Virus record (IMG/VR): IMGVR_UViG_3300031703_000599
Coordinates: 34,609 to 98,608 of that record
Length of the DNA: 64,000 nt
Strand: one strand, 5' to 3'
Origin: a virus
Made by a program: the position numbers and the translations under genes
The notes under the pieces: generated by a model
What the model was told of the DNA's origin: nothing
The model's database searches: none
What the model saw: the letters and a program-made list of their open reading frames with translations, nothing else
Part shown: positions 11,934-39,501 of the stretch, piece by piece
How positions within the stretch are numbered: the first letter of the stretch is position 1
Layout of the letters: each line of letters opens with the position of its first letter

Positions 11934-11946
11934 TAAAAATGACATT

Positions 11947-18530: not shown

Positions 18531-19427
18531 TTATGTACCCCAGGCATTTCCGAATAAGCTGATGTGTAGTCTAGGGGTGAATCTCCATCCTTTTTCCATG
18601 CAGATGTTAGCGACTTCTTGAACATTGAGATTATACTCTTCCGAACGTCCTCCCATTGGCATAAGATATACTGGACACTCGATTCCGGCATCACGATACG
18701 CTTGAACAGCCCTGCCAGCTTCATCAATATCTGCACGATCAGCAACAACAAATTTAAAATACAAGTTACTACCGTTAACGTCGGAATACCCACGAGCAAC
18801 ACTAGGCTTAATAGCATCCTCCCAAGATTCTCCGCTAGAGGAGAGCTTAGGCGAACAACTCCATGTGACTGTAATGCTGTTATTGTTACTGAGATAATTA
18901 ACGAAGTCACTATGAAGAGACTGAGTAGTGTTTGTTTCAAATGTGACATTTTTTAAATCCTGCATCCGTGGGTGATCAAACAGCTCTACGTATAGTCGTT
19001 GCCAAGCAAGCAAAGGTTCGCCACCGGTTAAAATTAAATGGACATCTTGTCCATTTTCCATTGTCCACTTACCTTCTGGTGTAAGCGATAATAAGTGTTC
19101 TACTACTTCATCGACTTCTGCTTGTCTATTAAATTCTTTAAACTCAGGATATATGCTTGCGTAGGTATCACATCCAGTATGAATAATAGGCAAGTCTTCA
19201 AACACCTTTGTAGTCTCATGTACTTTTGCATCAATTAATGCTAATACTTCTTCGTTGTAGCGTTGACCATTTGCATGCTTCTCTGCACGGCTAGGTTCGT
19301 TCTTGCCTAGTCCAAAGTTCATGCATCGAAAATTACAACCGAATGTACGCAAGAATACACTAGGTACTCCTACATATTTGCCTTCGCCTTGTACGCTATA
19401 AAATGCTTCGCTATATCGTAGTTTCAT
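18531..19427 (-). CDS. queE: 7-carboxy-7-deazaguanine synthase (radical SAM)
   Basis: EAFYSVQGEG, FLRTFGCNFRC...(insert)...CDT, TGGEPL, ETN, SPKL, RLH. Confidence 0.85.
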   Translation of the reverse strand: MKLRYSEAFYSVQGEGKYVGVPSVFLRTFGCNFRCMNFGLGKNEPSRAEKHANGQRYNEEVLALIDAKVHETTKVFEDLPIIHTGCDTYASIYPEFKEFNRQAEVDEVVEHLLSLTPEGKWTMENGQDVHLILTGGEPLLAWQRLYVELFDHPRMQDLKNVTFETNTTQSLHSDFVNYLSNNNSITVTWSCSPKLSSSGESWEDAIKPSVARGYSDVNGSNLYFKFVVADRADIDEAGRAVQAYRDAGIECPVYLMPMGGRSEEYNLNVQEVANICMEKGWRFTPRLHISLFGNAWGT

Positions 19428-19504: not shown

Positions 19505-19876
19505 TTATGTGATTAAATTGCTCCATTTCTTTAGCTTATTCTTTTTTACATATACACGTTCGTGTAATTCTTCGCTTGTTACTAGCCCATGTTCTGTCAT
19601 TAGATCAATCATGCATAGCACATCGCCTGCTTCTTCTACTAATTTTGTATGCCAGTTGCTATCAATTTGATCAGCTGAATCATACTTTCGCATCACCTTC
19701 ATTGCTACTTGTGTAAGCTCACCGCATTCTTCTGCTGTAATGACCATAAGTTGTTGTAGCGCATTAATAGGACTTTCTAATTTATTATTTTCGTTTAATG
19801 TTTTTGCTAATTCGGCGGCCGATTTAATGCATGCAGAAAAAGCGTCATCTTTTAGTTTAGTCATTTGATAATCCAA
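19505..19876 (-). CDS. MazG-like nucleotide pyrophosphohydrolase
   Basis: EECGEL...EEAGDVL all-alpha NTP-PPase motif. Confidence 0.8.
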   Translation of the reverse strand: MDYQMTKLKDDAFSACIKSAAELAKTLNENNKLESPINALQQLMVITAEECGELTQVAMKVMRKYDSADQIDSNWHTKLVEEAGDVLCMIDLMTEHGLVTSEELHERVYVKKNKLKKWSNLIT

Positions 19877-20238: not shown

Positions 20239-21183
20239 CTACAACTGCTTCTGTTCAAACAAACTGCTAACGCTTTCTTCGTTGCTAACGCGACGAATAG
20301 CTTCGCCAAACATTGTTGCTACACTTACAACACGTGTCTTTACGTGATTTGCTGGACATTTAAACATGATACTATCTGTTATCACTAGTTCAGTTAAGCA
20401 ACTGTCTTCCACTCGTTGACACGCTTTACCCGTCAGTACGCCGTGTGTTATGTACGCCCTTACACTAAGTGCGCCCGCGTCCATAATAGCTTGTGCCGCG
20501 TTACAGAGCGTCCCACCGCTGTCGATAATGTCATCTACTAAGATGGCATGTTGTCCTTTAACTTCGCCAATTAGTCCCATTACTTCGCTTTCACCTGCAC
20601 GTGGTCGCCTCTTGTCAACAATAGCAATGTCACCGCCGAACATGTCTGCGAACTTACGTGCGCGTACTGTGCCGCCTGCGTCTGGGCTTACAAACACTGT
20701 GCCTGCTGTAGTGTCTACGTTATACTTAATGTCTTTAGCAAAGGCAATGCGCGATGTTAAATCATCAACTGGAATGTCAAAGAAACCTTGTATTTGTCCT
20801 GCGTGTAAGTCCATTGTAAGCACTCGATGTGCGCCTGCTGTTGTTAGTAAGTCTGCAACTAACTTCGCTGTAATAGGTGTACGTGATGCGCTCTTACGGT
20901 CTTGTCGTGCATACCCAAAGTACGGAATAACTGCTGTGATACGGCTTGCACTGCTGCGTTTAGCTGCATCAATCATAATTAGAAGTTCCATTAGATTATC
21001 ATTTACAGGAGTACTAGTGCTTTGAACAATAAACACATCTTCGCCTCGGATGTTCTCGTTAAATTCTACACTCGATTCGCCATCTGCGAATGTTTTAATT
21101 GTAGCTGGTACCAGTGTTGCAAAACATCTATCTGCAATTAAATTGGCCATTTCTATATTGCTGTTACCTGTGATAATCTTCAT
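20239..21183 (-). CDS. prs: ribose-phosphate pyrophosphokinase
   Basis: [45 protein letters not shown]. Confidence 0.97.
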
Positions 21184-21199
21184 GCTTATTTCCTTTTTA

Positions 21200-21505
21200 T
21201 TATGTTGCAAGTTTTTCAAGAAACTGTCGTTGTTCCCATGTTTTATGCTGTTCTATATTCATTGATGCTACTACAACATACCGTGTGCGCATCGTAGCGG
21301 CTTCCTTGTGACTGTGTATACTTAATGCCATTCCGTTATCTATAAAGAACTCACTGTCTGGGTTTTTGAGAAACTCTATCATAATAGCACGATTGGAATA
21401 AAACTTATCAGCGTAGCCTTTGTATTGGCGATCTCTGAATTCGTCTGCTTGTACCTCAAACGTCCATATTTTGTACTGTTTTACAATCTGGGTCTGGTGA
21501 TTCAT
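21200..21505 (-). CDS. hypothetical protein
   Basis: ORF track. Confidence 0.55.
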
Positions 21506-22375: not shown

Positions 22376-25123
22376 TTAAAATCTCCATTTTAAGTTAACA
22401 CCAGCCGTTGTAACTGTGTTGTCTGTTCCTGCATAGTTAAGACGTGCTTCTACGTGTGTCTTAACTGTTACGTTCTCTGCAATGCTAAAGTTACGAAACA
22501 ATCCAATGTCAACTTCACGCTTTGTAGCTGATAAGCTACTATCACTGCTCATGTATTCTACATCGCCTGTTGCACTAACTGTGCTAGGTGTAGTAAACGT
22601 TGCGTTTCCGTTTGTAATAGCTACTGGAACACTTGCGACAAATCCATAGTCTCCGTTTTCTGCTTGTTGTTTAATACCCAATGTTGCACTGTTGCTAATT
22701 AGGTTACTAGCTGACTCCATTAAACTGTTGCCTACATTTAACTTAGTGATACCCATTGTTGCATTTCCAAACAGTTGTGTATTTTTACCTAAGTCGTAAT
22801 TAACATTGTATCCGGCATACACAGTTGTAGCGCCAGTAACATCCATTAATGGATTACTTGCAACATTGCCCAGGAATGATCCATCTTCTGCTACCATTCC
22901 AAACATGAAGTTATCCACTGTTGTTGCAAGGCTAATGCTAGCATCGTCAACGTTAACTGCAACTGCTTCTGTATTTATAATGTGTCCGCCGCCTAGTCCA
23001 AAGTAATAGTCTGGAGCAAAGCCTGCAACTGCTGCTTGTGTTGGATCTGCTGTACGTGTGTCTGCTGTTGTTAGCATACTATTCCCATCCATAAAGAAGT
23101 TACGATCATAATCATCAACTACCATCAAGCTTGAGATGCTTGCAATATGGGCTCCTCCGCTCATAGCAAACGCGCCACTTCCTACATTACTACGAGCTCC
23201 TTCAATGCGTCCGCTAGTTGGAATACCAATAGCGCCTTGTGGAGTGGTTGCATTGTCTAAGTCGAGCAATCCCTGTCCGTGTACATTCACATCATAGTTT
23301 GTAAGATTCTTGTCTGCTGTGTTCAATAGCAATTTAACAATGTTCTCACCTTTCATGTATGGCCACATCTGATGAATAATACCAACTGCGCCAGTGACTG
23401 CTGGCGCTGCCATTGATGTGCCGCTGTTTGTGCGGTACTCGCCATTTTTATCTGTGCTAGCAACATACTGACCTGGTGCCATAATGTACCAATCACTAAT
23501 ACGTCGATTGCTGTTACATGCGCCTGCTTCATTGAATGAGAAGCACATAGTACCTGCTTTGTTACTAGCTGTAGCAATTGCGTCTAATCGTGTATCCCAA
23601 CTTCCTACTACAATTACCTTACCGCCAAGCAACAACTCGCCCGCTTCGTTTTCAGCAATTGCATAGTGTGCTGGAAACGTTGGAGTTGCTAATCGTTGAT
23701 TGCCTGCAGCCATAACTACTACTGCTTCGTTGCCGCTCATTGAGTTAACAATAGACGGAAGCATATAGCTTGTATCAGTCATTAAGTTTGAGTAGCCTTG
23801 TGTAGCATACTGACTACGTGTATCTGTGCTACGAAACACACCTGCTTCGTTTGTTGACACGATGCTCTTCTTGTATGTACGATCTACGTTATAGTTACCA
23901 CTGACGTTAATTGCATCAGCTCCGTTGTTTACTGCCCATTCAATTCCTTTGCCCAGTACGCTCATGTCGTAATAGCCGCTGTTGGTTGCAACCTTACCAA
24001 TTAATAAGTTTGCATCATACGCGACACCTGTTGTGCCGACTCCGTCAAGTGCTGCAGCTGCAATGCCTGCTACGTGTGTTCCGTGTGAATACTTATTCTC
24101 ATCTTGTATAGTTTCCTGCCAAGCTTCGCCGTCGTATTCAGCGTTACATGCTCTCAAGAAACACTTTGATGCTAATATGCGGCCTTCAAACTCTGCATGG
24201 TCAATATCAATGCCTGTGTCAAGAATAGCTAGCGTACTACCTTTGCCTGTCCATCCGCGGGCCCATGCTGTGGGCGCATTAATAGCAGATAAGTTATTAG
24301 CACTAAGGCTTAATGATCTATTGATGTAGTCTTGGTTAATTCGACTGTTCATGTTGTGGACAGCATCACTGTATGCTTGTGTGCCAGCATAGTTAACATC
24401 GTCACGTGCTAAGTATTCGTCTACTGTTAGCACATTAGCTGTTTTAATTCCCATTCCGTCTAGTTGAGTCTCTACTACTACTTCTTCAACTACTATAACA
24501 GGACGCTCTAATTCATACGTGCGTACAAATTCACGTTCTTCTACTTTACGTGTTGTATTTTCTGTGCGAGTAGCTTGTAATTCTGTGCTTACAGATGTTA
24601 CTGTGCTGTCATCACTAAAGTGTGTCGTAGTAAAGATTCCCTTTTGGTCTTTGTACGTAACAACAGATGTGTAAACAATTGTTACATCAAGGTATACATT
24701 TACAGTGTAATCAATTGTTTCTTCTACTACAGTTTCTGTACGTTGCGCTGTTTCTGGTGCAGCTTTTTGTTGAGTAAAGTAATTATATGTGTAAGATTTG
24801 TGTGTCTCAACTGGCTTAACAGTATCTGCGGTGATACCTGCTAATAATTGGAAACGTGCTACTTCTGCTTTGTACCACTCAAATTGTTTAACAATAGCTT
24901 TTGCCCATGGGTAATGCCCATACTTCTCAACAAGAGGAGCAAAGTTTTTTACTGCACGTTCGTAGTTATGAACCATGCTCTTAGCAAAACTTACTTGGCT
25001 GCTGCCAGTGAGGCCTTGTGCATATGAATAGTATGAGTAATTAGCAACAGCTGGTGTTGCTGTGCCTAGTACAACAGCTAGTGCAAACACGCGAGCTACA
25101 GTTGTAAGTAGTGATTTCTTCAT
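22376..25123 (-). CDS. secreted S8 subtilisin-like serine protease with a probable C-terminal beta-barrel
   Basis: Signal peptide; ILDTG, HGTHVAG, AAGN, SGTSMAAP; ends GVNLKWRF. Confidence 0.9.
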   Translation of the reverse strand: MKKSLLTTVARVFALAVVLGTATPAVANYSYYSYAQGLTGSSQVSFAKSMVHNYERAVKNFAPLVEKYGHYPWAKAIVKQFEWYKAEVARFQLLAGITADTVKPVETHKSYTYNYFTQQKAAPETAQRTETVVEETIDYTVNVYLDVTIVYTSVVTYKDQKGIFTTTHFSDDSTVTSVSTELQATRTENTTRKVEEREFVRTYELERPVIVVEEVVVETQLDGMGIKTANVLTVDEYLARDDVNYAGTQAYSDAVHNMNSRINQDYINRSLSLSANNLSAINAPTAWARGWTGKGSTLAILDTGIDIDHAEFEGRILASKCFLRACNAEYDGEAWQETIQDENKYSHGTHVAGIAAAALDGVGTTGVAYDANLLIGKVATNSGYYDMSVLGKGIEWAVNNGADAINVSGNYNVDRTYKKSIVSTNEAGVFRSTDTRSQYATQGYSNLMTDTSYMLPSIVNSMSGNEAVVVMAAGNQRLATPTFPAHYAIAENEAGELLLGGKVIVVGSWDTRLDAIATASNKAGTMCFSFNEAGACNSNRRISDWYIMAPGQYVASTDKNGEYRTNSGTSMAAPAVTGAVGIIHQMWPYMKGENIVKLLLNTADKNLTNYDVNVHGQGLLDLDNATTPQGAIGIPTSGRIEGARSNVGSGAFAMSGGAHIASISSLMVVDDYDRNFFMDGNSMLTTADTRTADPTQAAVAGFAPDYYFGLGGGHIINTEAVAVNVDDASISLATTVDNFMFGMVAEDGSFLGNVASNPLMDVTGATTVYAGYNVNYDLGKNTQLFGNATMGITKLNVGNSLMESASNLISNSATLGIKQQAENGDYGFVASVPVAITNGNATFTTPSTVSATGDVEYMSSDSSLSATKREVDIGLFRNFSIAENVTVKTHVEARLNYAGTDNTVTTAGVNLKWRF

Positions 25124-25794: not shown

Positions 25795-26238
25795 TTAAAT
25801 GTGTGGTGATGGGTCTTCTGATAGTTTGTCTAGGAACTTCTGTTGCTCAACTCGTTTGTTTACATCTATGCCTAATTCTTCCAGTGCAGTTGCAAATACA
25901 GTTTTATACAATTCTAGCTCGTCAATCATTGCTCCAACTTTTATACTTTTACCTTTTATTGTAATTGTTAAGTCGGTTTCGTCAAGGCCATCTTGTAGAC
26001 TACTTGATGTTAATTGACCAATTGAAACATTACTAGCGGTATTTACGTTGCTGTTGCCACTAGTTATAGTAGAGGTTGCCCACGTAGCCGAAGGCGTGCC
26101 AAGGCTAACATTACTTGTCATGTTAGCACCGTTGCGTTTTTTTGATGCATCAAGATCTATTTCGTAATCACTTACGTCTGGTTTGCTGGCTGTAGTGATG
26201 CCGTCAGTTGGTGATGCCCAAGGCCAGGTGTCATCCAT
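25795..26238 (-). CDS. hypothetical protein
   Basis: ORF track. Confidence 0.55.
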   Translation of the reverse strand: MDDTWPWASPTDGITTASKPDVSDYEIDLDASKKRNGANMTSNVSLGTPSATWATSTITSGNSNVNTASNVSIGQLTSSSLQDGLDETDLTITIKGKSIKVGAMIDELELYKTVFATALEELGIDVNKRVEQQKFLDKLSEDPSPHI

Positions 26239-26813
26239 TAGAAGTTACCGTAGTCGCGTTCACATTCCCATGGAAACACAATCCATGCATCGCGTTCTGA
26301 TTTATCAATATCCATTGCAGTGTAATCAACTTCACCAAAATTGCTACTTGTATTATCAAGTAATGTAGCAAATCTAACATTATTGCCCCATACTGTATCC
26401 CAATTAGAATCATTAGGAAGGCATGTACTTTGCCAATCATCTTTGATCCATTGCATTGTTTTACCGCTGTCGTTGATGTCATCAAGGATAAGAATATTTT
26501 TACGAGCGTCGATGTCTGACCGAGTAGCATCTGGATCAAATCCATCAGTGTCTTTGTCTACATAGCCAAACGCTTCCTCTGACATCCAGCAATTACTTTC
26601 TGGGCCTTCTTCTCTTGAGATGTCTCTAAAGCGAACATCTAGTGTATGCATCGGAATGCCTGTCATGTTTGACATAATCACTGATGGAACAAGTCCGCCA
26701 CGTGTAATGCCTACAATGTAATCAGGGCGCCAGTTGTCAGCGTACATTAGATTGTTTAACGTTACAATCATATGTTCCACATCTTTCCAATTATAGTGTA
26801 CTTTGTTGATCAT
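26238..26813 (-). CDS. type I (purine-like) phosphoribosyltransferase
   Basis: VGITRGGL, ILILDDINDSGKT PRPP-binding loop, WIVFPWE (Gpt-like). Confidence 0.9.
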   Translation of the reverse strand: MINKVHYNWKDVEHMIVTLNNLMYADNWRPDYIVGITRGGLVPSVIMSNMTGIPMHTLDVRFRDISREEGPESNCWMSEEAFGYVDKDTDGFDPDATRSDIDARKNILILDDINDSGKTMQWIKDDWQSTCLPNDSNWDTVWGNNVRFATLLDNTSSNFGEVDYTAMDIDKSERDAWIVFPWECERDYGNF

Positions 26814-27016
26814 TGTGTATTCTCCAAGGGTTGTGTGTATGTTACGTTCTGTGAAATTGTGCGTACTTCTAGTTGCTTTACAGTAGCTAAGTACAGATTT
26901 GTAAAACTCATATCAATATGCACTTCGTTTTCTTGTAGTAGTTTATACGTGTTGTTAAGTGCTTGCACCTGAGTGTACAAGTTGTCTACTAATTCTTCTA
27001 CAATAGGATCTATCAT
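26810..27016 (-). CDS. hypothetical protein
   Basis: ORF track; coupled between folE and the PRTase. Confidence 0.5.
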   Translation of the reverse strand: MIDPIVEELVDNLYTQVQALNNTYKLLQENEVHIDMSFTNLYLATVKQLEVRTISQNVTYTQPLENTQ

Positions 27017-27699
27017 CGAGGTGCAAACTCCTGTTGTAATTTAATGTTGTTAAAGAATTCAGTCTTGGTGCCTGAGTCATCTTTAAATGCACCTTTAAGT
27101 ACTGTTGTCTGTGTTAAGCTACTGTGTGCCATAATGCCGCGGTTCTCACAACACCCATGTGTTGCTTGAATGTACACACCTAAGTGTTCAGCGCCTGTGG
27201 CATTGCCTATTTCACGTGCAATATCATTTGCAAGTTCTTCTTGTAGCGTTCCACGCCTAGCGCACCATTGTGCAATACGTGTATACTTGGACAATCCAAT
27301 AAGTTTGTCTGATGCAATAATACCAATGTATGCTATGCCGCTTACTGGCTGGTGGTGATGTGAACACATACTTTTAAGTTCGCTACGTACTACTAACATG
27401 CCATCGTATCGATCTTCGCTGTCATTTGGAAATGCAGTTGCAGTGGGCATAACGTCATAGCGTCCTGCCATTATCTCATTAAAATACATTTTAGCTAAAC
27501 GCTTTGCTGTACCTTTTGAGTTGGGATCATTTTCACGATCAATCAGTAGTGCATCTAATACGCCCTCAAACGCAACAGTTGCGTCAAGTATGAGGTGTTC
27601 TTTGTCACCTGGTTCTAGTACTGCTGAAATGTTATCGCCGGCCCAGTAACGAATATTTTCTTTCTGAAGTAGGGCCTTAATATGTTCTGCTTTGCTCAA
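27013..27699 (-). CDS. folE: GTP cyclohydrolase I
   Basis: SMCSHHHQP, GLSKYTR, LQEEL, HGCCENRG. Confidence 0.95.
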   Translation of the reverse strand: MSKAEHIKALLQKENIRYWAGDNISAVLEPGDKEHLILDATVAFEGVLDALLIDRENDPNSKGTAKRLAKMYFNEIMAGRYDVMPTATAFPNDSEDRYDGMLVVRSELKSMCSHHHQPVSGIAYIGIIASDKLIGLSKYTRIAQWCARRGTLQEELANDIAREIGNATGAEHLGVYIQATHGCCENRGIMAHSSLTQTTVLKGAFKDDSGTKTEFFNNIKLQQEFAPR

Positions 27700-27714
27700 T
27701 TTAATTCTCCGAGT

Positions 27715-28674
27715 TTAAGACGTGGATGTCTTAGTTGTTTTGCTATAATAATTATACGCTGATTTTATAATTTCGTCAAGTCCAAATTTAGGTGTCCAGT
27801 GTAACTTCTCTGTGGAAGTTACATCAGCAACTAATTTAGCAGGATCGCCTTCTCTGCGTTCTGCGTATATTGCTTGTGGCTTCAATGGAGTGTGTTCTGT
27901 TATTGCGTTAAACACCTCTTGATTACTGTAACCAGATCCGCTTCCTAGATTAAATATCTTAGCGACTGGCATTTTATACTTCTGTAAGTATGCAAACGCA
28001 CAACTGATGCCATGCGCGATATCTTTAACATGTACATAATCTCTAATACATGTTCCATCTGGTGTATTGTAATCGTTGCCGTAAAATGTAAACGGCTTGT
28101 CTTTCATTGCTGATTCCATAATACGTGCAATAATATGTGTGGCTTGTTTTTCTTGTCCTAGATTTAAATCGGCATCAGCGCCTGCAACATTAAAGAAACG
28201 AAGACTAACACTGCTTATATCATGTGCTCTCGCATAATCAGTAAGCATTATTTCAGTCATTCGCTTGCTCCACCCATATGGATTTAGAGGAGTAGAACCA
28301 TCTTCAATGCGACAGACGCCGCTGTCAACTTCACCGTAACAGGCTGCTGAACTTGCAAACACAAACTGGTTAACGTTTGCTTCCTTACACGCGTCCAGCA
28401 ATGCTAGAGTACCTTGTACGTTGTTTTTATAATATGTACTTGGGTCTAACATGCTTGGGCCAACTAGACTAGTTGCTGCGATATGAGCAACTCCATCAAC
28501 ACCTTGAAGAAGATCTTGAATGTCACTGAAGTCACGACCACTATGGAATTCATCAAAGAATGTGTGCCGTACTTCGTTTCGGTCAATGCCAATCACATAA
28601 TGTCCTCTTTCCTTGAGATAATTACATGTCTGGCTACCAATGTAGCCTGCTGCTCCTGTTACTAGTATTCTCAT
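27715..28674 (-). CDS. galE: UDP-glucose 4-epimerase
   Basis: LVTGAAGYIGS, FASSAACYG, PYGWSK, LRFFNVAGA, TPDGTCIRDYVHV. Confidence 0.93.
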   Translation of the reverse strand: MRILVTGAAGYIGSQTCNYLKERGHYVIGIDRNEVRHTFFDEFHSGRDFSDIQDLLQGVDGVAHIAATSLVGPSMLDPSTYYKNNVQGTLALLDACKEANVNQFVFASSAACYGEVDSGVCRIEDGSTPLNPYGWSKRMTEIMLTDYARAHDISSVSLRFFNVAGADADLNLGQEKQATHIIARIMESAMKDKPFTFYGNDYNTPDGTCIRDYVHVKDIAHGISCAFAYLQKYKMPVAKIFNLGSGSGYSNQEVFNAITEHTPLKPQAIYAERREGDPAKLVADVTSTEKLHWTPKFGLDEIIKSAYNYYSKTTKTSTS

Positions 28675-29852
28675 GTATACTTTGCCTCCGAAACATGATC
28701 TCTGTAGCGGTTGCCACTTCGCAACCATTGTTTGCCATTTCCTTGCATAATATCAATCATACGATCAATTGTGCCATTGTTCCAATCACTTATTTTACCC
28801 ATGTTCTCGCTTGGTTTGTCTAGTCCTGCAAGGATTTTCTCCACTGCATGTTCTTTACTCCAAGGTGAATATAGGCGTGTGTGATCGTTAGCAAAGGTTT
28901 CAGGAAAACTACGATATGCAGGATAAACTACATTGCAACCTAGTGCATCTGCTTCACTGACGGTATTGGATACCCAGTCTTGCAATGCGCAATTGAACAT
29001 AACTTTCGAATCATTAACGATTTGATAGTATTGGTCCTTTTGTAGGTTTTCGTAAATTTTCAGCTTACCTTGTTTTTGCATACTTCTAGCACGGTCAAGA
29101 TACTTCTGGTTATTGCTACGTAGCGGTCCGCCGCTTAGTACTGAGAACTCAACGTCTGGGCGTTCAGCTAGTACCATTTCGATAACATCCATATAAAAAT
29201 CTGGTTGCTTCTCTTGATCAAATCGAGCTGCAAAAGTTACACGATTACTTCTTTGATCAAATGGCTTAACGTTATTAACTCCACCAATTCTGTTTAGTAC
29301 CTCATCCTTGCCGAAGCTAAGACCTGAGATATTATACAGTGGTGCAGTCCAATTTGCAATACGCATGTTAGCAACCATCTCTTCATTTGTTGCTAGCACT
29401 GTTGCAAATTCACCTACCATTTGCTCATACAAGCTCATCCATTTGCTCATACCCCATACGTGTACAAAGTCATCTGGATCTATTGCTTGTGCTAAACACC
29501 TTACATAAACTGTAGGGCGCTGGTCTTCTGGAATTTGATTCATAATGTATGGCAAGCTTTCAATGCCAGGTTGGAACATGTCTTCAAAGAAAACAACATC
29601 TTCACCTGAGCATTGTCCATTGCGCATCATCTGAACTAAGTTCATCAGTTGACTCATTCCAAAGTAACTACGTCCGTGAGCATCAAGTACTTGCCCTACA
29701 CTAATACTCTTAGTGTCGTCTATAGTTTCTCCTGGAACAACTACATAGTCTAACCCTCGCTTACGAAACACTGCTTCGGCCCAGTCTTGCAACTGGAGAG
29801 TATAACGGCCTTCGTATGGCTCAAGTCCCATGTAGAATAGTTTACGAAACAT
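28671..29852 (-). CDS. GT-B fold glycosyltransferase (GT4-like)
   Basis: FAARFDQEKQP; QDWVSNTVSEADALGCNVVYP...SFPE C-terminal motif. Confidence 0.75.
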   Translation of the reverse strand: MFRKLFYMGLEPYEGRYTLQLQDWAEAVFRKRGLDYVVVPGETIDDTKSISVGQVLDAHGRSYFGMSQLMNLVQMMRNGQCSGEDVVFFEDMFQPGIESLPYIMNQIPEDQRPTVYVRCLAQAIDPDDFVHVWGMSKWMSLYEQMVGEFATVLATNEEMVANMRIANWTAPLYNISGLSFGKDEVLNRIGGVNNVKPFDQRSNRVTFAARFDQEKQPDFYMDVIEMVLAERPDVEFSVLSGGPLRSNNQKYLDRARSMQKQGKLKIYENLQKDQYYQIVNDSKVMFNCALQDWVSNTVSEADALGCNVVYPAYRSFPETFANDHTRLYSPWSKEHAVEKILAGLDKPSENMGKISDWNNGTIDRMIDIMQGNGKQWLRSGNRYRDHVSEAKYT

Positions 29853-30213
29853 CTTCTGTTCCGTTGGATTTGTAAGCTAATTTCCCAACGTGGATTTTTA
29901 GCTTCTTTGATGAACGTTCGCGTTGCATCTGCACCTGAATATCAAATGTAAATGCGTTTTGCTTCTCAGTTGAAGCAACATCAAATCCAAATACTTTGTA
30001 TGATCCGCGTAGATCATTTAAGTAAGCGATAAACAACGATCGAATTGCCGACACATCCTTGTGGTTAAACATGTATCCATCAAATGGTTGAATGATTTTT
30101 AGTAGGTCGTACTTCACGTCATTAATGTTGTAATGACCGGAGATACGGTACTTGTCTGTACTCGCTGCCCGTTTGGGTGCTGTACTTTGCCTAGTTGGTG
30201 TAGTGCTTGACAT
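29842..30213 (-). CDS. hypothetical protein
   Basis: ORF track. Confidence 0.6.
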   Translation of the reverse strand: MSSTTPTRQSTAPKRAASTDKYRISGHYNINDVKYDLLKIIQPFDGYMFNHKDVSAIRSLFIAYLNDLRGSYKVFGFDVASTEKQNAFTFDIQVQMQRERSSKKLKIHVGKLAYKSNGTEDVS

Positions 30214-30239
30214 TTCATATATTCCTTCGTCAATTATTA

Positions 30240-30644
30240 TTAAATAGGTTCAAAAGTTAGTGTTGCGCCGTTTTCATTATCTTCTGCTACTGTAATAGTA
30301 ATAGAACGGCCTTTGTATTTGTTGTGAATTTCCTCTGCTAGCTCTTCTGCAATCATCTCACAACTTCTATGATTAAGCTTTAATACTGAGGTAGAACTAT
30401 CTACTTCTGCATACAGCGATTCCAGCCAACGTTTGAATTGAATAAATTCAATATCTCTGTCGTCATGGAATACTTCAATTGCTACTTTAAAGTGAAAGAT
30501 GTGCCTATGTGCCACTCCTAAAAATGAAACATCATCCCATCCACCTGTGGCAAGTAATGGATCATCTTTCGCAGCAGGATACAAGTGTACTCCTTCTCGT
30601 TGAAATGTAACCCATACTTGTCGTGTTGCAATAGCTAATGCCAT
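30240..30644 (-). CDS. queD: QueD-like / 6-pyruvoyltetrahydropterin synthase-like T-fold protein
   Basis: EGVH...HRHIFH zinc His cluster, DIEF, SCEMIA, VAED; same operon as folE. Confidence 0.65.
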   Translation of the reverse strand: MALAIATRQVWVTFQREGVHLYPAAKDDPLLATGGWDDVSFLGVAHRHIFHFKVAIEVFHDDRDIEFIQFKRWLESLYAEVDSSTSVLKLNHRSCEMIAEELAEEIHNKYKGRSITITVAEDNENGATLTFEPI

Positions 30645-30645
30645 G

Positions 30646-30825
30646 TTACTTCCTTGCTTCTTCGTCTTGCTTACGGAATAGCTTTAGCATTTCCCATAAC
30701 TTCCAATCAATTGCTTCAAGGTATTTCATTAGTGCATCAGCATCAATGTTAGATGACTGTGCAGTTTCTGTAGTTTCTGTAGTTTCTGTTTCTTCTTCGT
30801 TAAGAAGTCTTACTTTTTTAACCAT
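30646..30825 (-). CDS. small hypothetical protein
   Basis: Manual ORF MVKKVRLLNEEET...IDWKLWEML with AAGGAG RBS. Confidence 0.55.
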   Translation of the reverse strand: MVKKVRLLNEEETETTETTETAQSSNIDADALMKYLEAIDWKLWEMLKLFRKQDEEARK

Positions 30826-30836
30826 GGTGATCTCCT

Positions 30837-31385
30837 TTATTTGATTATATGGTCTGACGTGTATTGATCCCAGTTTGTAAATACACTGCGATCCATTAAA
30901 GTGCGTAGGCTATGAACCCATACACCATCGTTAGTAGAATCAAAATCAACATCGTCGATCTTAATGCTAGCGTTGTACCCCATCTGATCTACATACGGAA
31001 TTCGTACACTTATCATTGGAATAAATCTGCGATGCTCAGTGAGCCCTTCTTCAAGAACCCATTCAGCTTGCGCAGGTTGAAAGTCTAAAGTAACCCAAAA
31101 ATCAGCATCGAGCAATGCACGAATTAGTGTTGCCCAATGCTGATGTATATCTGCGTCTACTTCTGCAATAGATGTGTACTCTGAAACATCGAAGCTCATG
31201 TTTGCGCCCGTGTAAATGTGATTACATCCGTGTGCGTTTGCTTCGTCAATAATATCATCAACTGTATGGTCATTGCCTACAACAAATAGTGTAGTCATTC
31301 CATGTGCTGGTGTGCGTTCTATTTCGCTGCCAACAAACATAGTGACGCCAGTTTTATTATTTTCAGTTTCGTAATTACGTTTCAT
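30837..31385 (-). CDS. hypothetical protein of the deazaguanine operon
   Basis: ORF track; FVGxEIERTP...TLFVVG...KIDD...NxGVW. Confidence 0.7.
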   Translation of the reverse strand: MKRNYETENNKTGVTMFVGSEIERTPAHGMTTLFVVGNDHTVDDIIDEANAHGCNHIYTGANMSFDVSEYTSIAEVDADIHQHWATLIRALLDADFWVTLDFQPAQAEWVLEEGLTEHRRFIPMISVRIPYVDQMGYNASIKIDDVDFDSTNDGVWVHSLRTLMDRSVFTNWDQYTSDHIIK

Positions 31386-31580
31386 TTATCTACCTTGCAA
31401 TTCAATTTCTAATTTACGTAGTTTTTCTTTTAAGGATAACTTCAGCTTTTTCATTTCTGTTAACACTTCATCCTTTATATGTTTATTGTACGCTTCTTTT
31501 ATGCTGCTGTCAAGCTCTTTGTGCTTTTCTTTCAGACTTTTCTTGTAACGCATTAAACTATTTTTAGTACCTGTACCCAT
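31386..31580 (-). CDS. small coiled-coil protein (DUF465/YdcH-like)
   Basis: LKEKHKELD...MKKLKLSLKEKL. Confidence 0.65.
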   Translation of the reverse strand: MGTGTKNSLMRYKKSLKEKHKELDSSIKEAYNKHIKDEVLTEMKKLKLSLKEKLRKLEIELQGR

Positions 31581-31603
31581 GTTAGTCTCCTTTAATATTG
31601 TTA

Positions 31604-33097
31604 TTATAGACGCTGTAGGAACTCTTCTGCTCTCGCAGCATCTTCATCAGTAAAGTCGCTATGTAGTGTGTCGCCCCAACTTGCATCAAACAAGTTATCA
31701 AATGCAGATGATGATGTTGCAATGCTTCGTTGACCACTGAAGTCTGCTAACATTGGACGTGCATCTTCTAACATCTGCATTGGCGTTTCGCTTTTAAACA
31801 ATTCATCAATGAAGTTAACAACATAAATTACATTACGTGGTACCCATGTATCAAACTCATCAATCTTCTTACCAGGCTTGACTTTCTGCCAGTGCCTGTA
31901 ACTTGGCTTAAAGCGTTGTGTAGCGACATCAGCTAATTGGTTAGCACGTTGTACACTATCAATATGTGTGTAAACATTGTGTGCCATCATTAGGAAGTAG
32001 CTAAAGCTATCCCAACTTGTCTTGCCTTCTTTACCTATTTTATTAAGCATGCCTGGTTTGTACCAACAAATATCACCCATGTTAAGACGTTCAGCAATTG
32101 GACCTGCAAACGGGAATGGTGTTTCACTTCCTGCAAACATCTTGTCATCAATTGCTCCTTCCATTACATAACCAAACTTGTCATTGCGCAAGTTGTTTTG
32201 CGTATACATCTGGCCTTTAGCTGTAGTAATGAATGGACTTGCTGCATCATATGTAACCATCATGTTTTCATTTACAGTTTCGCGTAGATTACGCTGAATT
32301 GCTGTAAACACACAACCCCAGTCAAGTTTTGCTGTACCGAGATAGTGAACTAAGTCACGTCCAGGGTCTAGCATATGCTCATCTCGCATAACAATAAGTC
32401 TGCGTAGCATTAGATGCAACTGCTTCATGTTATAACCAGCCATTGCCCAACCCTCAAACGGGTAGTGCTTAACAGCATCGTACCAGATGTCAGCAGTGTG
32501 TTCATCGTTGCCTTGCAAGACGTTCATGAACTTTGTTTTACCTTGCCTGTTACGTACAAAGTAATCATTGTTAAACTTAGTATAGTCTAAACAATCACCA
32601 AAGCTTTTTAGTCCTGTCTTTTCATTAAGTGGTGGTAACGCTGCCAGTGTAGGAATATCCAACACCATGCTATAATCACTAGTATGTTCCAACCAGTTAA
32701 GGATACCTGACCGTAGTTTGTCGTCTGTTTTAAAGTTAGCCCAGTCGCATTTAATAACACCCTTTGCAATCTGGAATCCACCAGAGTCACCTAAGATGAA
32801 ACTTTTACTACGGTCACGCTTTTGGATCATGCACTCTTGTTCGTCACTTTTATCTGTGTCCAAGAGTGCATGTCCTGCACTATAAAGACCCCACTTATAA
32901 TTGTAGTATGTGTCTGCTTCTTTTAAGAAGTCGCATCCATCAATGCCAAACTCAAACCCATTAGGCATGCGTTCGTCACTTAGATACCCAGGCTTGCGCC
33001 GTTGGTTACTAATCATTTTAGAATAAAAGCTACTGATACTAGGCAGAAATACTGCATAGTCCTTGTTAGACTCTGTGAGGTTTCGTTGTGCTACCAT
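31604..33097 (-). CDS. dpdA: TGT-fold guanine transglycosylase, probably DNA-acting DpdA
   Basis: GDSGGFQ, VLDIP, VLQG, GWAMAG, HYLG, YDAASP, MAHN motifs of TGT/DpdA; co-located with folE and QueD-like genes. Confidence 0.75.
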   Translation of the reverse strand: MVAQRNLTESNKDYAVFLPSISSFYSKMISNQRRKPGYLSDERMPNGFEFGIDGCDFLKEADTYYNYKWGLYSAGHALLDTDKSDEQECMIQKRDRSKSFILGDSGGFQIAKGVIKCDWANFKTDDKLRSGILNWLEHTSDYSMVLDIPTLAALPPLNEKTGLKSFGDCLDYTKFNNDYFVRNRQGKTKFMNVLQGNDEHTADIWYDAVKHYPFEGWAMAGYNMKQLHLMLRRLIVMRDEHMLDPGRDLVHYLGTAKLDWGCVFTAIQRNLRETVNENMMVTYDAASPFITTAKGQMYTQNNLRNDKFGYVMEGAIDDKMFAGSETPFPFAGPIAERLNMGDICWYKPGMLNKIGKEGKTSWDSFSYFLMMAHNVYTHIDSVQRANQLADVATQRFKPSYRHWQKVKPGKKIDEFDTWVPRNVIYVVNFIDELFKSETPMQMLEDARPMLADFSGQRSIATSSSAFDNLFDASWGDTLHSDFTDEDAARAEEFLQRL

Positions 33098-33101
33098 TGT
33101 A

Positions 33102-33851
33102 TTATACCGTTAATGCTGGCAAGATATAGTCGTACTTGCCAATTCCACTATCCACACTAATTTGTAGTGCGCCGCGTTTTGAGATTTGCATTACACATGC
33201 ACCGCTCATTCCTAATTTTAAGATTGCAAGCACTTGTGCAAGTGGCCATGCATAACCTTCATTGAGCTCTCCGTTTACATTCTTAGCAAATGTACGCTTG
33301 CCTGTAAACGATCCGTCTGGCGCTCCAACTGTAATAATCAAATCACTGCCTTCAGTTTTAACTGTAAAGTTAGGCTCAATGCCTCCATAAATGCCTGCAA
33401 TTGCTTGTAGCTCACTTACCTTAGCTTTAGTTGGTTCAAATGTAACGTCCCAATCAGCACCTTTAAACTTAACAGTTTGCAGTGTTTGTTCGATAATCTC
33501 TTTAGACATAAATCGATATTGGTCTGTGTTGCCATCAACATCTTTGAACAACAAATGATCTGGTGTTTGTACACCATTGCGTTCGCGCGATACAACTTCT
33601 AATGTTGCGTCTTCTGTTTGATAGTTAGACAAAGATGATACGCCTGCTAGGAAACCTAAGTTACCTAAGCCAAACTCGCCTTTGAATTCTGGTGTTACAT
33701 CATGTAACTCTGCATGCAAAATTACTGTACGGTCTGCATCCATTGCATCAAGCTCTGTTGATTCATCTGTGCCAGTTACCTTTACATTGGTAATAAAGCC
33801 TAACCCTGCGGTGTGCTTTACGATATCCTGTACTACGTCACGTGTACTCAT
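33102..33851 (-). CDS. putative sliding clamp (gp45/PCNA-like)
   Basis: About 250 aa, beta-rich pattern, AMDxxR near the N-terminus, C-terminal YDYILPA like clamp termini. Confidence 0.5.
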   Translation of the reverse strand: MSTRDVVQDIVKHTAGLGFITNVKVTGTDESTELDAMDADRTVILHAELHDVTPEFKGEFGLGNLGFLAGVSSLSNYQTEDATLEVVSRERNGVQTPDHLLFKDVDGNTDQYRFMSKEIIEQTLQTVKFKGADWDVTFEPTKAKVSELQAIAGIYGGIEPNFTVKTEGSDLIITVGAPDGSFTGKRTFAKNVNGELNEGYAWPLAQVLAILKLGMSGACVMQISKRGALQISVDSGIGKYDYILPALTV

Positions 33852-33882: not shown

Positions 33883-33911
33883 ATTATATACTGGTATTTA
33901 GGTTTTGTCAA
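33883..33911 (-). promoter_or_regulatory. sigma70-type promoter for the clamp-dpdA operon
   Basis: TTGACA-N17-TATAAT. Confidence 0.7.
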
Positions 33912-33953: not shown

Positions 33954-34268
33954 TCATTGCTCTGTTACTAACTTATTATAAGTATTTTCAATTTCCCATC
34001 GTATCCATCCTAGAACAGTATCAGTGTCAATATTCTCATTAATCCATTCGTACTTGCCAATGCCTGTACTAAATAAATGATCTCTGAATTCTTTCTTGAT
34101 ATTATCTTCTAAGTCTTCAATGTGGTTTGAAGGGCCTTGGAATACATTTGTAAACTTTATTTCAATTCCGCAATGCCCTTCATATTTACGTTTGCGATTC
34201 TCTATGTTGCTAGTAATGCCAAAGCATGTCTTGCCTGTAGCATTACTCCATATGTATAAGTAGCGCAT
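33954..34268 (-). CDS. GIY-YIG/T5orf172-like nuclease domain protein
   Basis: YLYIW...CFGITSNIENR...LED...EWI. Confidence 0.6.
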   Translation of the reverse strand: MRYLYIWSNATGKTCFGITSNIENRKRKYEGHCGIEIKFTNVFQGPSNHIEDLEDNIKKEFRDHLFSTGIGKYEWINENIDTDTVLGWIRWEIENTYNKLVTEQ

Positions 34269-36622: not shown

Positions 36623-37717
36623 CTATGTAAATTGCTCTGCGTATGGGTCAAACTCTGTGCCGCATTTCTGTGCGCAGACGCCTAGTTTACCTTCTTTGAT
36701 ACTAGCTAACTTCCAACTGTCTTGTATGTTCTGCATAATACCATTTGCAAACACACCTTTAATTCCATGCACTTTAGCACTAATGCCATCTTTGCCTCCA
36801 GCTGCATCAATGAAGTCCCAGATTTGCTCAACTTTAGGATCAGCTTGCCACCACTTGTACATACGTCCTGCTGTCCAGCAACACGGCATAATAAGTCCTT
36901 CAGCAGTTACAAATATGCTCTTAACATTTGGCTTAGATACTTTACAACTCACAGTTGCTTGGTTGTAATAGTCAAGCATTGTGCCGTAAGTCTTCTCGAT
37001 CTCTTTTAGCTTTAGCACTGCTAGGTTTTGGTGCTCTGCCTTTTTAGGTTTAGCAAGAGTAGTTGTTTCTGCACCTTTGTGATTCTTAGCCTGATGTGAT
37101 TCTTTCTTCTTACTGTCTTGTGTAATGAAGCGCCCAGTTTTCTTCTTCATGAACTTCTCAACACCCCACTCTTTAGCAAGTTGTTCAGCACGTTCCACAT
37201 CGCATTCACTGTGTTCAAATATTAAATAGTCCCAACGAGCTCTACCGCCTGCTGCAATAAATGCTTTCATGTTACGCTCTACTAGTTTCCACTTTACATT
37301 TTGTCTATACAAATGATTTGTTTCTTCCAGTCCGTCTACACTAAAGATAACACACCCATTGCGACCAATGATTCTAGCAAGTGATTCCCACCAACTAGCA
37401 CTTTGCATGCCTGCGTTAGTGTTCATGCTTAACCACATGTCTTCGTTGCAGTCGCGGAACCATTGCATAATCTCTAGTGTATCACGTGCAGCAATTGGAT
37501 CGCCTAGGTTGCCGCACATATACATTACCTTGAGTTGACTAATAAAGTCTGCTGGAAATATATCTATGCAATCATCTAGTGTTAATTCTTTTTCGTCATT
37601 GCGTATGTGTTGGTTAACTGCTCCACCATTTTCATTTCTGTCACACATTGGACACGCAGCGTTGCAGCTTTGTGTTACTTCTAAGTGAACTTCGTTAATC
37701 TGTTCGTAGTTGTACAT
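36623..37717 (-). CDS. radical SAM protein with SPASM/twitch domain
   Basis: CNAACPMC, GNLGDP, SVDG...YR, C...PCC...CAQKC. Confidence 0.9.
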   Translation of the reverse strand: MYNYEQINEVHLEVTQSCNAACPMCDRNENGGAVNQHIRNDEKELTLDDCIDIFPADFISQLKVMYMCGNLGDPIAARDTLEIMQWFRDCNEDMWLSMNTNAGMQSASWWESLARIIGRNGCVIFSVDGLEETNHLYRQNVKWKLVERNMKAFIAAGGRARWDYLIFEHSECDVERAEQLAKEWGVEKFMKKKTGRFITQDSKKKESHQAKNHKGAETTTLAKPKKAEHQNLAVLKLKEIEKTYGTMLDYYNQATVSCKVSKPNVKSIFVTAEGLIMPCCWTAGRMYKWWQADPKVEQIWDFIDAAGGKDGISAKVHGIKGVFANGIMQNIQDSWKLASIKEGKLGVCAQKCGTEFDPYAEQFT

Positions 37718-38471: not shown

Positions 38472-38801
38472 TTAATGATTTCGCCTTCCATCAAACACAC
38501 AAACAAAATACAATATGCTGTCTGTGTTGTTTACGACTTGATGATGAACTCCATCTTCGATTAATACAACATCACCTGGTTCTACGTTACGTGGAACATT
38601 ATTCAAACACATTACACCTGTGCCTGAGATAAAGTGATACACTTCTTCTTGTCCGGGATGTGAATGTCCATTTGTACGCATAAATGGTTTAAGCGTAGTT
38701 GAACTAACAACTAAATTATTCAGTGTTGTATTGTCTTGTAATGTGTATGTGTCGTTGTCTTTAACAACTGTGCCACCAACATCCATTATATTAACTTTCA
38801 T
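38472..38801 (-). CDS. cupin domain protein
   Basis: HSHPGQEEVY...GDVVLIEDGVHH. Confidence 0.85.
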   Translation of the reverse strand: MKVNIMDVGGTVVKDNDTYTLQDNTTLNNLVVSSTTLKPFMRTNGHSHPGQEEVYHFISGTGVMCLNNVPRNVEPGDVVLIEDGVHHQVVNNTDSILYFVCVFDGRRNH

Positions 38802-39501
38802 TTGTATCTCCTAACGATTCAAATCCCCATTTGCGCTCTAAACAAAACCAGCATGTTCCGCAATGATATGTGAAGTTAGTAGTTGGATCTTCGCAACTTC
38901 GAGTAAGTGAAAATAAGGATTCCATTACACCTAAATTGGTATAAAATTCTGCCGTTGCTTTTTTATGATGATTAGCAAATGGCCTGTTGCTTTTGTAGTA
39001 TCCCATATATCCTGGTTTTGCCAACGGCCACTCATAAATGGAATATTTATCTGGGGCGTCGTGGTCACGTATTGCAACACGCTCATCTGTTAACATTCCG
39101 TGCTCTGCCATTGCAGATGTTGGTGGATTTGATGTTATGCCGCTGTACATCATTGTATATTTGTCTTGTACAGAGTCAATGAGTGCCTCTTGCTTAGGTG
39201 TGTAATCCTGTTCGTTGTTTGCTGTATTTGTTACGTGTAAATAGTCTCCCATTGGATAAACACTGTTAACATAATTTATTACTTGTTCAGCAAATATTAA
39301 TTGAAATGGTTTTGGCTGTGCAACTGTAGTCGCTATAACAAATCTCATTGTAGGATTTAATTCATGCCTGTACTTAGCTAACATGTACAATAGTATAGCA
39401 CTGTCAGCGCCGCCCGACAGCTTCACAAGTACATTAGTTCCTTGTGGTATATCAATTGTAACGTCACCGAAGCTATTAGTGAATGTCATATTATTTGTCA
39501 T
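38791..39501 (-). CDS. QueC-like PP-loop ATPase (7-cyano-7-deazaguanine synthase-like)
   Basis: LSGGADS PP-loop; TRSC...HCGTCWFCLER zinc motif. Confidence 0.65.
   Translation of the reverse strand: MTNNMTFTNSFGDVTIDIPQGTNVLVKLSGGADSAILLYMLAKYRHELNPTMRFVIATTVAQPKPFQLIFAEQVINYVNSVYPMGDYLHVTNTANNEQDYTPKQEALIDSVQDKYTMMYSGITSNPPTSAMAEHGMLTDERVAIRDHDAPDKYSIYEWPLAKPGYMGYYKSNRPFANHHKKATAEFYTNLGVMESLFSLTRSCEDPTTNFTYHCGTCWFCLERKWGFESLGDTNES

Follow-up and report, generated by a model that had tools for sequence, protein, structure and literature searches.

Does a phage glycosyltransferase place a sugar on a deazaguanine base of viral DNA? The question is raised by a gene run in the window analysed here, a 64,000-nucleotide stretch (positions 34,609 to 98,608) of the IMG/VR virus record IMGVR_UViG_3300031703_000599. 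Between positions 26238 and 33851 of this window, an unbroken series of minus-strand open reading frames (ORFs) combines genes of deazaguanine metabolism with genes for a glycosyltransferase (GT), the UDP-hexose 4-epimerase GalE and a protein with the fold of tRNA-guanine transglycosylase (TGT). The record is a fragment of 98.6 kb, with an estimated completeness of 28%. Its source is an uncultured marine jumbo phage, and the module lies within the replication block of this phage. A sequence-only reading of the window had assigned both the GT and GalE to a deazaguanine DNA-modification pathway, and every ORF that it listed, from the clamp-like gene to the phosphoribosyltransferase (PRTase) gene, is present (Table 1).

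We conclude that the run is a QueC-less, DpdL-type 7-deazaguanine DNA-modification module. The GT very probably works within the deazaguanine pathway. We regard it as evenly balanced whether its sugar ends up on deazaguanine in virion DNA. Deazaguanine DNA systems, DpdL and DpdA3 are already known; what is new is the GT (with GalE) in a conserved DpdL-type module.

The glycosyltransferase and its constant partner

We identified the GT as a GT4-type enzyme. It scores 28.8 bits with PF00534 (gathering cut-off 26.4), a model that is also matched by 33 of 52 representatives of its family (best E 4.5e-10). In these representatives (28-55% identity), R210, E214 and K215 of the donor site, SRxDxEKxP, are invariant and D292 and E300 nearly so, and the motif aligns with GRLDxxKNP of WlaC. 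PDB profile matches were to GT4 enzymes only (WlaC, GlgM, MshA and WaaG). R16, Q68, D91, D128, W138 and E143 are invariant in the N-terminal acceptor domain, which is specific to this family. Within the run the GT shows the highest conservation (71-89% identity over 80 IMG/VR contigs, versus values down to 36-43% for the TGT-like protein) and, judged from sequence comparison, unusually strong purifying selection. The family is large, with about 8,000 clusters at 90% identity and 857 at 50% identity in metagenome catalogues.

With the GT as query, we gathered 80 close and 82 distant loci (28-47% identity; two of the distant ones from contigs of metagenome-assembled genomes, MAGs) and scanned all 162 with hidden Markov models (HMMs). 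DpdL is encoded on the same strand within 3.7 kb of the GT in 154 of the 162 loci, with a median gap of 319 bp, and in seven of the eight loci without DpdL the contig ends on the side where the gene would be expected. A compact QueD-QueE-FolE-DpdL-GT operon with a DpdA of phrog_887 behind it is seen in many distant loci. The GT-DpdL pair accompanies three unrelated DpdA types, which argues that the GT is tied to the product of DpdL and not to any single transglycosylase. Our models recovered a DpdA-type gene from 74 of the 80 close and 34 of the 82 distant loci. Two distant loci that were missed by the DpdA models (L096 and L110) carry a phrog_887 DpdA, and in other distant loci, too, the gene was probably overlooked and not truly lacking.

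Most of the 80 related contigs keep the order clamp, TGT-like protein, 182-aa protein, DpdL, GT, GalE, FolE. The TGT-like gene and GalE are both present in 74 of them and DpdL in 76. This arrangement is far beyond chance.

The same linkage was found in cultured phages. Wherever a cultured phage has the GT, the gene adjoins DpdL inside a FolE/QueE/DpdA cluster. These phages are BUCT-ZZ01, PA5oct, Xanthomonas phages X1 and BUDD, Acidovorax phage ACP17, Sinorhizobium phage Phosso (where the family member is annotated as a glycosyltransferase) and Burkholderia phage BCSR5. No member of the GT family was found outside DpdL clusters in 50,697 phage records. A pattern scan of 185,579 prokaryote genomes placed the family on two contigs only, from an Alistipes onderdonkii bin and a Treponemataceae MAG (L174 and L175). 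Both contigs are short and also carry DpdL, QueD, QueE and FolE, and their probable origin is phage or prophage DNA that ended up in these bins. When the distant GT representatives P0386 and P0331 were each used alone, pattern scans returned no viral loci; an alignment-based scan succeeded.

The sequence-only reading had named a lack of co-occurrence with dpdA in related genomes as grounds for refutation, and this test did not refute it. The constant partner of the GT is DpdL, not GalE. Membership of the GT and GalE in the deazaguanine pathway is strongly backed by synteny in unrelated phages, with GalE in the part of a lineage-specific helper.

DpdL and the QueC-less pathway

The gene called QueD-like in the earlier reading does have the QueD fold. 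The AlphaFold2 (AF2) model of the 134-aa protein has a predicted local distance difference test (pLDDT) value of 92, and its top Foldseek matches are 6-pyruvoyltetrahydropterin synthase (PTPS) and Escherichia coli QueD, with template modelling (TM) scores of 0.63-0.68 normalized by query and 0.72-0.75 by target (for E. coli QueD, 4NTK, 0.66-0.68 and 0.74-0.75, E 1e-4). The identity as QueD did not hold. L42-x3-H46-R47-H48-x-F50 is invariant in 25 homologues, and LxxxHRHxF is the signature of DpdL, found in place of CxxxHGH of QueD (PMC10516641). The protein is 50% identical to DpdL of ACP17 (E 5e-34; HMM E 1e-50) and 33% identical to DpdL of the Cellulophaga phage phiST (tblastn E 1e-7; HMM E 7e-19). 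It has no match to the PTPS family of Pfam, and its profile has no significant PDB sequence match. Assignment as a plain QueD was rejected (hhalign probability to QueD of BUCT-ZZ01, 2%). QueD and DpdL are both encoded in BUCT-ZZ01, ACP17, phiST and RHph_I1_18.

DpdL is a predicted decarboxylase of 7-carboxy-7-deazaguanine (CDG). It occurs in phages with DpdA, FolE, QueD and QueE, without QueC, that carry 2'-deoxy-7-deazaguanosine (dDG), and it lacks the catalytic Cys required by PTPS and QueD (PMC10516641). Since the gene is DpdL, the pathway is the QueC-less branch from CDG to 7-deazaguanine (DG). The base is thus derived from DG or CDG, and not from preQ0 or 7-amido-7-deazaguanine (ADG).

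The other genes agree in part with their first assignments. FolE and the PRTase were recognized again through PF01227 and PF00156, and QueE through its PHROG family (Table 1). Also as read before, there is no QueF match on the 98.6-kb fragment. The gene taken to be QueC-like matches QueC over its last 60 residues only, and its membership of the system is doubtful. None of the five complete phage genomes with GT and DpdL has a QueC above cut-off.

One unusual DpdL was seen in the Vibrio phage Bakedbeans, where DpdL is the C-terminal third of a 383-aa fusion protein (gp176; positions 7179-8360 of locus L088) whose N-terminal portion spans about 260 aa; the GT is absent from this phage.

The glycosyltransferase as an optional addition

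DpdL also occurs without the GT. No GT family member was found anywhere in the genomes of seven DpdL lineages (phiST, RHph_I1_18, Bakedbeans, D479, Ahp1, MA9V-3 and Roos), and positive controls were matched. The GT is thus present in seven of 14 cultured DpdL lineages. In a quick DpdL tree, built from a short alignment with some long branches and with sampling biased to GT-bearing loci, the GT-less sequences are interspersed with GT-linked ones, and the well-supported branches require no fewer than four changes. PA5oct, for instance, has Ahp1 as its sister, and the clade of the window includes RHph_I1_18. This scatter indicates that the GT is an optional addition to one DpdL activity. It looks as if the GT was repeatedly gained or lost, and acts after or beside DpdL.

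A divergent transglycosylase

The 497-aa protein of the run had been named TGT/DpdA, and both the TGT fold and the Asp motifs were found. Its AF2 model (pLDDT 86) matches TGT of Zymomonas mobilis in Foldseek (E 3.5e-9). In VIA-align the top five chains all belong to the TGT superfamily: ArcTGT (Z 19.7), QTRT2 (18.5), TGT (17.8), the DNA preQ0 insertase DpdA 7UI4 (16.3) and Cap10 (14.3). Generic TIM barrels come next, at Z 11.7. The motifs GDSGGFQ (G103-Q109, including D104) and FDxASP (D284, A286, S287 and P288) are invariant or nearly so in 27 homologues, and by motif D104 and D284 appear to correspond to D102 and D280 of TGT.

Sequence families gave nothing: no Pfam (PF01702 included), NCBIfam, PHROG or PDB sequence match was obtained, and we place the protein in the superfamily because of its fold and motifs. 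The canonical Zn site of TGT (CxCxxC...H) has no counterpart in the form of an invariant Cys cluster in the alignment of the 27 homologues, and no C-terminal PUA or other RNA-binding domain was recognized. The family comprises more than 6,800 metagenomic proteins. Identity across the 80 related contigs is 36-85%, and the closest cultured relative is EST35_0316 of PA5oct (38.8% identity). Membership of DpdA3 or phrog_10773 was rejected on low hhalign probabilities (below 3% each to phiST DpdA3, ACP17 DpdA and X1 DpdA). Viral TGT models of Achromobacter phage Motura and Vibrio phage nt-1 match as well, and phiST DpdA3 weakly (BFVD, E 1e-3). On the structural model, the protein is best described as a separate, very divergent TGT/DpdA subfamily. 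We predict that it swaps guanine for deazaguanine in DNA, a target suggested indirectly by the neighbouring replication genes and by the resistance of PA5oct DNA to restriction.

GalE and the sugar donor

GalE is confidently identified (Table 1). It matches PDB 2C20 with E 2e-60, and the catalytic S...YxxxK is aligned. The stop codon of the GT and the start codon of galE share ATGA, an overlap of 4 nt that constitutes translational coupling. This overlap, reported in the sequence-only reading, is real with galE starting at 28674, rather than at the start of the longest ORF (28728).

GalE was found in 74 of the 80 close and 28 of the 82 distant GT loci, and is absent next to the GT in ACP17, X1, BUCT-ZZ01, Phosso and BCSR5. 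It is a lineage-specific helper. The hosts of these cultured phages presumably have a GalE of their own. The donor is probably UDP-galactose (UDP-Gal) or UDP-N-acetylgalactosamine (UDP-GalNAc). The gatekeeper residue of GalE, which we take to be a Leu after reading the alignment by eye against the position of E. coli Y299, is compatible with UDP-N-acetylhexosamines; we hold this assignment with low confidence.

PA5oct encodes a related fragment. EST35_0320 (172 aa; positions 11419-11934 of locus L002), located between DpdL and a PRTase-like gene, matches the N-terminal Rossmann half of the GalE HMM only (E 2e-17) and may be the remnant of a former GalE.

A proposed pathway and its acceptor

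In the pathway that we propose, FolE, QueD and QueE would convert GTP to CDG, with QueD encoded elsewhere in the genome or supplied by the host. DpdL would then decarboxylate CDG to DG, a chemistry that we infer from the literature on phiST. The TGT-fold enzyme would place DG in the phage DNA in exchange for guanine. PRTase and phosphoribosyl pyrophosphate (PRPP) synthetase may recycle the displaced guanine to GMP and GTP, and so back to FolE (the option we favour), or may ribosylate the deaza base. The GT, with UDP-Gal or UDP-GalNAc from the coupled GalE, would add a sugar to deazaguanine while this is still a free base or once it is part of the DNA. By analogy with known enzymes, glycosylation of the base before insertion seems as plausible as a reaction on DNA in the manner of T4: HuiG glycosylates a free 7-deazapurine in huimycin biosynthesis (bioRxiv 10.64898/2026.04.15.718813). 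The outcome would be virion DNA that is protected from restriction by a 7-deazapurine with an attached sugar. Tentatively, and at somewhat less than an even chance, we expect a glycosylated 7-deazaguanine (e.g., galactosyl- or GalNAc-substituted) in the virion DNA of this phage group and of PA5oct, ACP17, X1, BUCT-ZZ01, Phosso and BCSR5.

Several points weigh against this proposal. DG offers no hydroxyl group and GT4 enzymes are retaining O-glycosyltransferases, so that N2, the CDG carboxylate or some other atom would have to serve as acceptor. No hydroxylating or tailoring partner of the GT is universal across the loci. QueD, sought as a PTPS match, was not found on the 98.6-kb fragment, which covers 28% of the genome. 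The decarboxylase activity of DpdL has never been reconstituted (PMC10516641). The loci were gathered by the GT, so that counts over them, such as 154 of 162, say nothing on the frequency of the GT among DpdL phages. Finally, the isoelectric point (pI) of the GT is 5.2 and that of its acceptor domain 4.6 (family median 5.8), and such an acidic protein does not look much like one that binds DNA in a groove. This acidity is weak evidence because the TGT-like enzyme is acidic as well.

The question of the acceptor can be narrowed. Hydroxymethylcytosine (hmC) and hydroxymethyluracil (hmU) are ruled out for most lineages, as a gene of the ThyA family is absent from four of the five complete genomes with GT and DpdL. 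Aminomethyl and amide acceptors are lacking as well, since neither QueF nor a convincing QueC was found, and preQ0, preQ1 and ADG are unlikely. The sequence-only reading had named CDG or ADG as acceptor: ADG falls with the assignment to the DpdL-type, QueC-less branch, and an acceptor derived from CDG would fit this branch. The 182-aa and 123-aa proteins, which it had suggested as possible tailoring enzymes, are not universal partners of the GT (66 and 36 of the 80 close loci, respectively).

A group of distant loci encodes a 439-aa radical S-adenosylmethionine (SAM) protein between the GT and the phrog_887 DpdA (positions 8152-9471 in L096), which could be a lineage-specific tailoring step. 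A relationship to a radical SAM protein encoded elsewhere in the window, at 36623, was considered and rejected; the two are unrelated.

Alternative explanations

Among other explanations, the one that survives best is that the substrate of the GT is a soluble intermediate (a pterin, CDG, DG or one of their nucleotides), the sugar being transient or a side product and the DNA carrying plain dDG. We consider this unlikely. Cyanobacterial pterin glycosides exist, and FolE, a PTPS-fold protein and a GT form the trio of a pterin-glycoside route, which we treat as a lead only. The strongly acidic acceptor domain, the absence of an obvious O-acceptor in DG and the activity of HuiG on a free base point the same way. 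In addition, co-expression of dpdL and dpdA of ACP17 gave no dDG, and the authors suggested that other enzymes may be needed (PMC10516641). The ACP17 GT, which sits between dpdA and dpdL, was left out of this published attempt at reconstitution. However, phiST and the six other GT-less DpdL phages do without a GT in the genome, and reconstitution with the phiST genes failed as well, so that DpdL chemistry does not depend on the GT. GT-less and GT-linked DpdLs are interleaved on the tree, DpdL lacks the catalytic Cys of PTPS and QueD, a soluble glycoside would bring little gain to the phage, and a DNA transglycosylase is part of the cluster.

Insertion of a sugar-bearing base by transglycosylation, or its glycosylation on DNA, must also be weighed against a route through nucleotides. 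Here PRTase and PRPP synthetase would make a deaza nucleotide for polymerization, MazG would clear dGTP, and the TGT-like protein would have an accessory or repair-type role; the GT would modify the nucleotide or act after replication as in T-even phages. PRTases that use CDG are known from tubercidin biosynthesis. Genes for PRTase, PRPP synthetase, Tdk and a MazG-like protein occur in the same run, the PRTase lies within the cluster also in BUCT-ZZ01 and PA5oct, and phiST, with MazG and a kinase-like ATPase in its cluster, replaces 100% of its base. Still, we rate this route as improbable. The PRTase, present in the cluster in only 47 of the 80 close and 14 of the 82 distant loci, is not a core partner, and guanine salvage accounts for it equally well. 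The DpdA-type gene, by contrast, was detected in nearly all close loci (and probably escaped detection in many distant ones), and no variation is seen at the catalytic Asp positions of the TGT-like protein.

It is very unlikely that the TGT-like enzyme modifies phage or host tRNA and that the GT makes a glycosylated deazaguanosine there. Glycosyl-queuosines do occur in animal tRNA, and the fold is slightly closer to ArcTGT than to DpdA (Z 19.7 versus 16.3). However, genes for polymerase, clamp and helicase surround the module in all lineages, and PA5oct, with a TGT-like protein of the same family, has G-modified DNA. Furthermore, the same GT-DpdL pair goes with the phrog_887 DpdA, DpdL of phiST accompanies dDG in DNA, and the TGT-like protein has no recognized PUA or other RNA-binding domain.

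A surface glycan or protein target, with the GT and GalE mere neighbours of the deazaguanine genes, is close to refuted: pipelines of the Joint Genome Institute label the GT as a 'glycosyltransferase involved in cell wall biosynthesis' and GT4 enzymes commonly build polysaccharides, but the linkage to DpdL holds at short distance in very different phages, the family occurs nowhere else in the phage records and in prokaryote genomes only on two contigs that both carry DpdL and FolE, and the run has no signal peptide, membrane gene or polysaccharide gene.

Comparison with known systems

The best characterized relative is phiST, in which plain dDG fully replaces dG and which has DpdL and no GT (Cui, Hutinet et al., Nucleic Acids Res 2023, PMC10516641). 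Both systems are QueC-less and encode FolE, QueE (plus QueD in phiST), a DpdL with LxxxHRHxF, a divergent enzyme of the TGT superfamily and a MazG-type gene, and both adjoin replication genes. Unlike the module described here, phiST has no GT family member in its genome and no GalE or PRTase in the 16 kb around DpdL. Its DpdA3 (259 aa, phrog_20335) has no detectable sequence similarity to the 497-aa protein, and the resemblance is in fold only.

The closest cultured counterpart is the Pseudomonas jumbo phage PA5oct (Wroclawvirus), in which EST35_0314-EST35_0322 represent the same families in nearly the same order. They include clamp-like and TGT-like proteins, a GT family member (EST35_0317; HMM E 3e-43) between the TGT-like gene and DpdL, a DpdL with 57% identity, a PRTase-like protein and QueE. 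PA5oct differs in having no full GalE and in the order of GT and then DpdL, and its genes are all annotated as hypothetical. A deazaguanine system has already been described in this phage, and its DNA, which contains a modified G, resists restriction enzymes with G in their sites (PMC12191111). No mass-spectrometric identification of the base was found in the accessible papers.

In T-even phages, as predicted here, a phage GT-B enzyme uses a UDP-sugar on a non-canonical base as a shield against restriction. The T4 enzymes act on hydroxymethyl-cytosine, whereas here the base is a purine analogue with no hydroxymethyl acceptor. Neither AGT nor BGT of T4 is among the PDB sequence or profile matches of the GT at E up to 1.

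Huimycin and dapiramicin biosynthesis is similar by the reaction described for HuiG, in which a GT with a UDP-sugar acts on a free 7-deazapurine made by FolE, QueD and QueE (bioRxiv 10.64898/2026.04.15.718813). It differs in that the product is an actinomycete secondary metabolite formed from O-methylated preQ0, and no DNA transglycosylase is involved. Galactosyl- and mannosyl-queuosine likewise have a sugar on a 7-deazaguanine derivative in nucleic acid. There, the sugar is on the cyclopentenediol in animal tRNA, whereas the present module has no QueA, QueG or queuine genes and a context of DNA replication.

The deazaguanine bases reported in DNA are dPreQ0, dPreQ1, dG+, dADG, dCDG, dDG, mdPreQ1 and fdPreQ1. 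In literature outside subscription journals, our searches met with neither a glycosylated deazaguanine in DNA nor a GT encoded in a dpd cluster.

Significance

To our knowledge, all known glycosylated DNA bases are pyrimidines: glucosyl- and arabinosyl-hmC, base J and glycosylated derivatives of hmU. If the proposal is correct, 7-deazapurines that bear a sugar would add a new class to the known DNA hypermodifications, and as far as we know no purine analogue with a sugar has been found in natural DNA before. Given the number of GT clusters, such a base would occur widely in aquatic viromes. It would bear on restriction, CRISPR and modification-sensing nucleases (e.g., the END nucleases that target PA5oct) and would affect nanopore and short-read sequencing of marine viromes. 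A new enzyme that glycosylates DNA or bases would also become available as a tool. The module is present in at least six cultured phages, including PA5oct, and the seven GT-less DpdL phages are natural controls.

Gene content of the locus

Table 1. Genes and sites of the deazaguanine module and its surroundings, in window coordinates
Feature	Coordinates	Strand	Evidence or occurrence
QueE, 7-carboxy-7-deazaguanine synthase, radical SAM	18531..19427	-	phrog_2076 E 1e-50; NCBIfam QueE models below cut-offs
MazG-like NTP pyrophosphohydrolase, weak	19505..19876	-	PF03819 E 0.004, below cut-off
PRPP synthetase	20239..21219	-	PF13793 E 2e-52; PF14572
Purine (xanthine/guanine-type) PRTase	26238..26813	-	PF00156 E 5e-11; NF006613 N-terminal match; phrog_8995
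68-aa ORF	26810..27016	-	Homologue in 0/80 related loci
FolE, GTP cyclohydrolase I, first step to CDG	27013..27699	-	PF01227 E 1e-37; phrog_2197 E 3e-43
GalE, UDP-hexose 4-epimerase	27715..28674	-	TIGR01179 287.7 bits (cut-off 262.3)
GT4-type (GT-B, retaining class) glycosyltransferase	28671..29852	-	PF00534 and PF13692 above cut-offs
Basic 123-aa protein, pI 9.7	29842..30213	-	Overlaps GT start by 11 nt; 36/80 close loci only
DpdL, QueD-fold T-fold protein, 134 aa	30240..30644	-	Fold, motif, homology
Small ORF, 59 aa	30646..30825	-	16/80 loci
Conserved 182-aa protein	30837..31385	-	66/80 close loci, 28/82 distant loci, also ACP17
Small ORF, 64 aa	31386..31580	-	Close relatives only, 10/80 loci
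Divergent TGT/DpdA-superfamily transglycosylase, 497 aa	31604..33097	-	Fold and motifs
Clamp-like protein, 249 aa	33102..33851	-	phrog_12062, E 2e-50
Promoter TTGACA-N17-TATAAT, sigma-70-type	33883..33911	-	12/12 positions; in gap before ATG at 33851
PP-loop protein, QueC-like C-terminus	38791..39501	-	PF06508 and phrog_1550 over residues 173-232 only

A megablast search with the 7.6-kb region returned no match in the phage records. The clamp-like protein has homologues that adjoin the TGT-like gene in PA5oct, and the homologue in Phosso is annotated as 'DNA polymerase III sliding clamp beta'. Its role is probably in replication, outside the modification chemistry. The 182-aa protein has no Pfam, PHROG or PDB profile match; searches of the Atlas gave weak leads to TIM-barrel glycoside hydrolases and nothing more. 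The idea that it is a mini-TGT was rejected (hhalign probability to phiST DpdA3, 2%; PDB profile search empty). No match to Pfam or PHROG families was found for the 123-aa protein. Downstream of the run, and in the same orientation, are genes for Tdk, PRPP synthetase, the MazG-like protein, QueE, a methylase-like protein and MetK.

A further block, at 36623-39501, encodes a radical SAM protein (364 aa), two small ORFs (one resembling the GTP-binding domain of phrog_289), a cupin and the PP-loop protein with the QueC-like C-terminus. The radical SAM protein is 71-82% identical in most of the 17 related loci that hold one. This block could be a second modification or tailoring module.

The TTGACA/TATAAT promoter reported ahead of the run was recovered as a perfect match. 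Perfect TTGACA-N17-TATAAT copies are present on the coding strand at 33911, 25189, 20231 and 19491, within 16.5 kb, and each sits in the gap before a gene block. Promoter-like sites total 52, versus 49 in shuffled sequence, and are not in excess.

Directly upstream of the run promoter, positions 33954-34268 encode a 104-aa GIY-YIG/T5orf172-like protein, a candidate homing endonuclease that occurs in no related locus. Between the PRTase block and the tdk/prs/queE genes is a 915-aa subtilase (Peptidase_S8, E 1e-38; positions 22376-25123) with its own perfect promoter, and this position is shared by 20 of the 80 related contigs.

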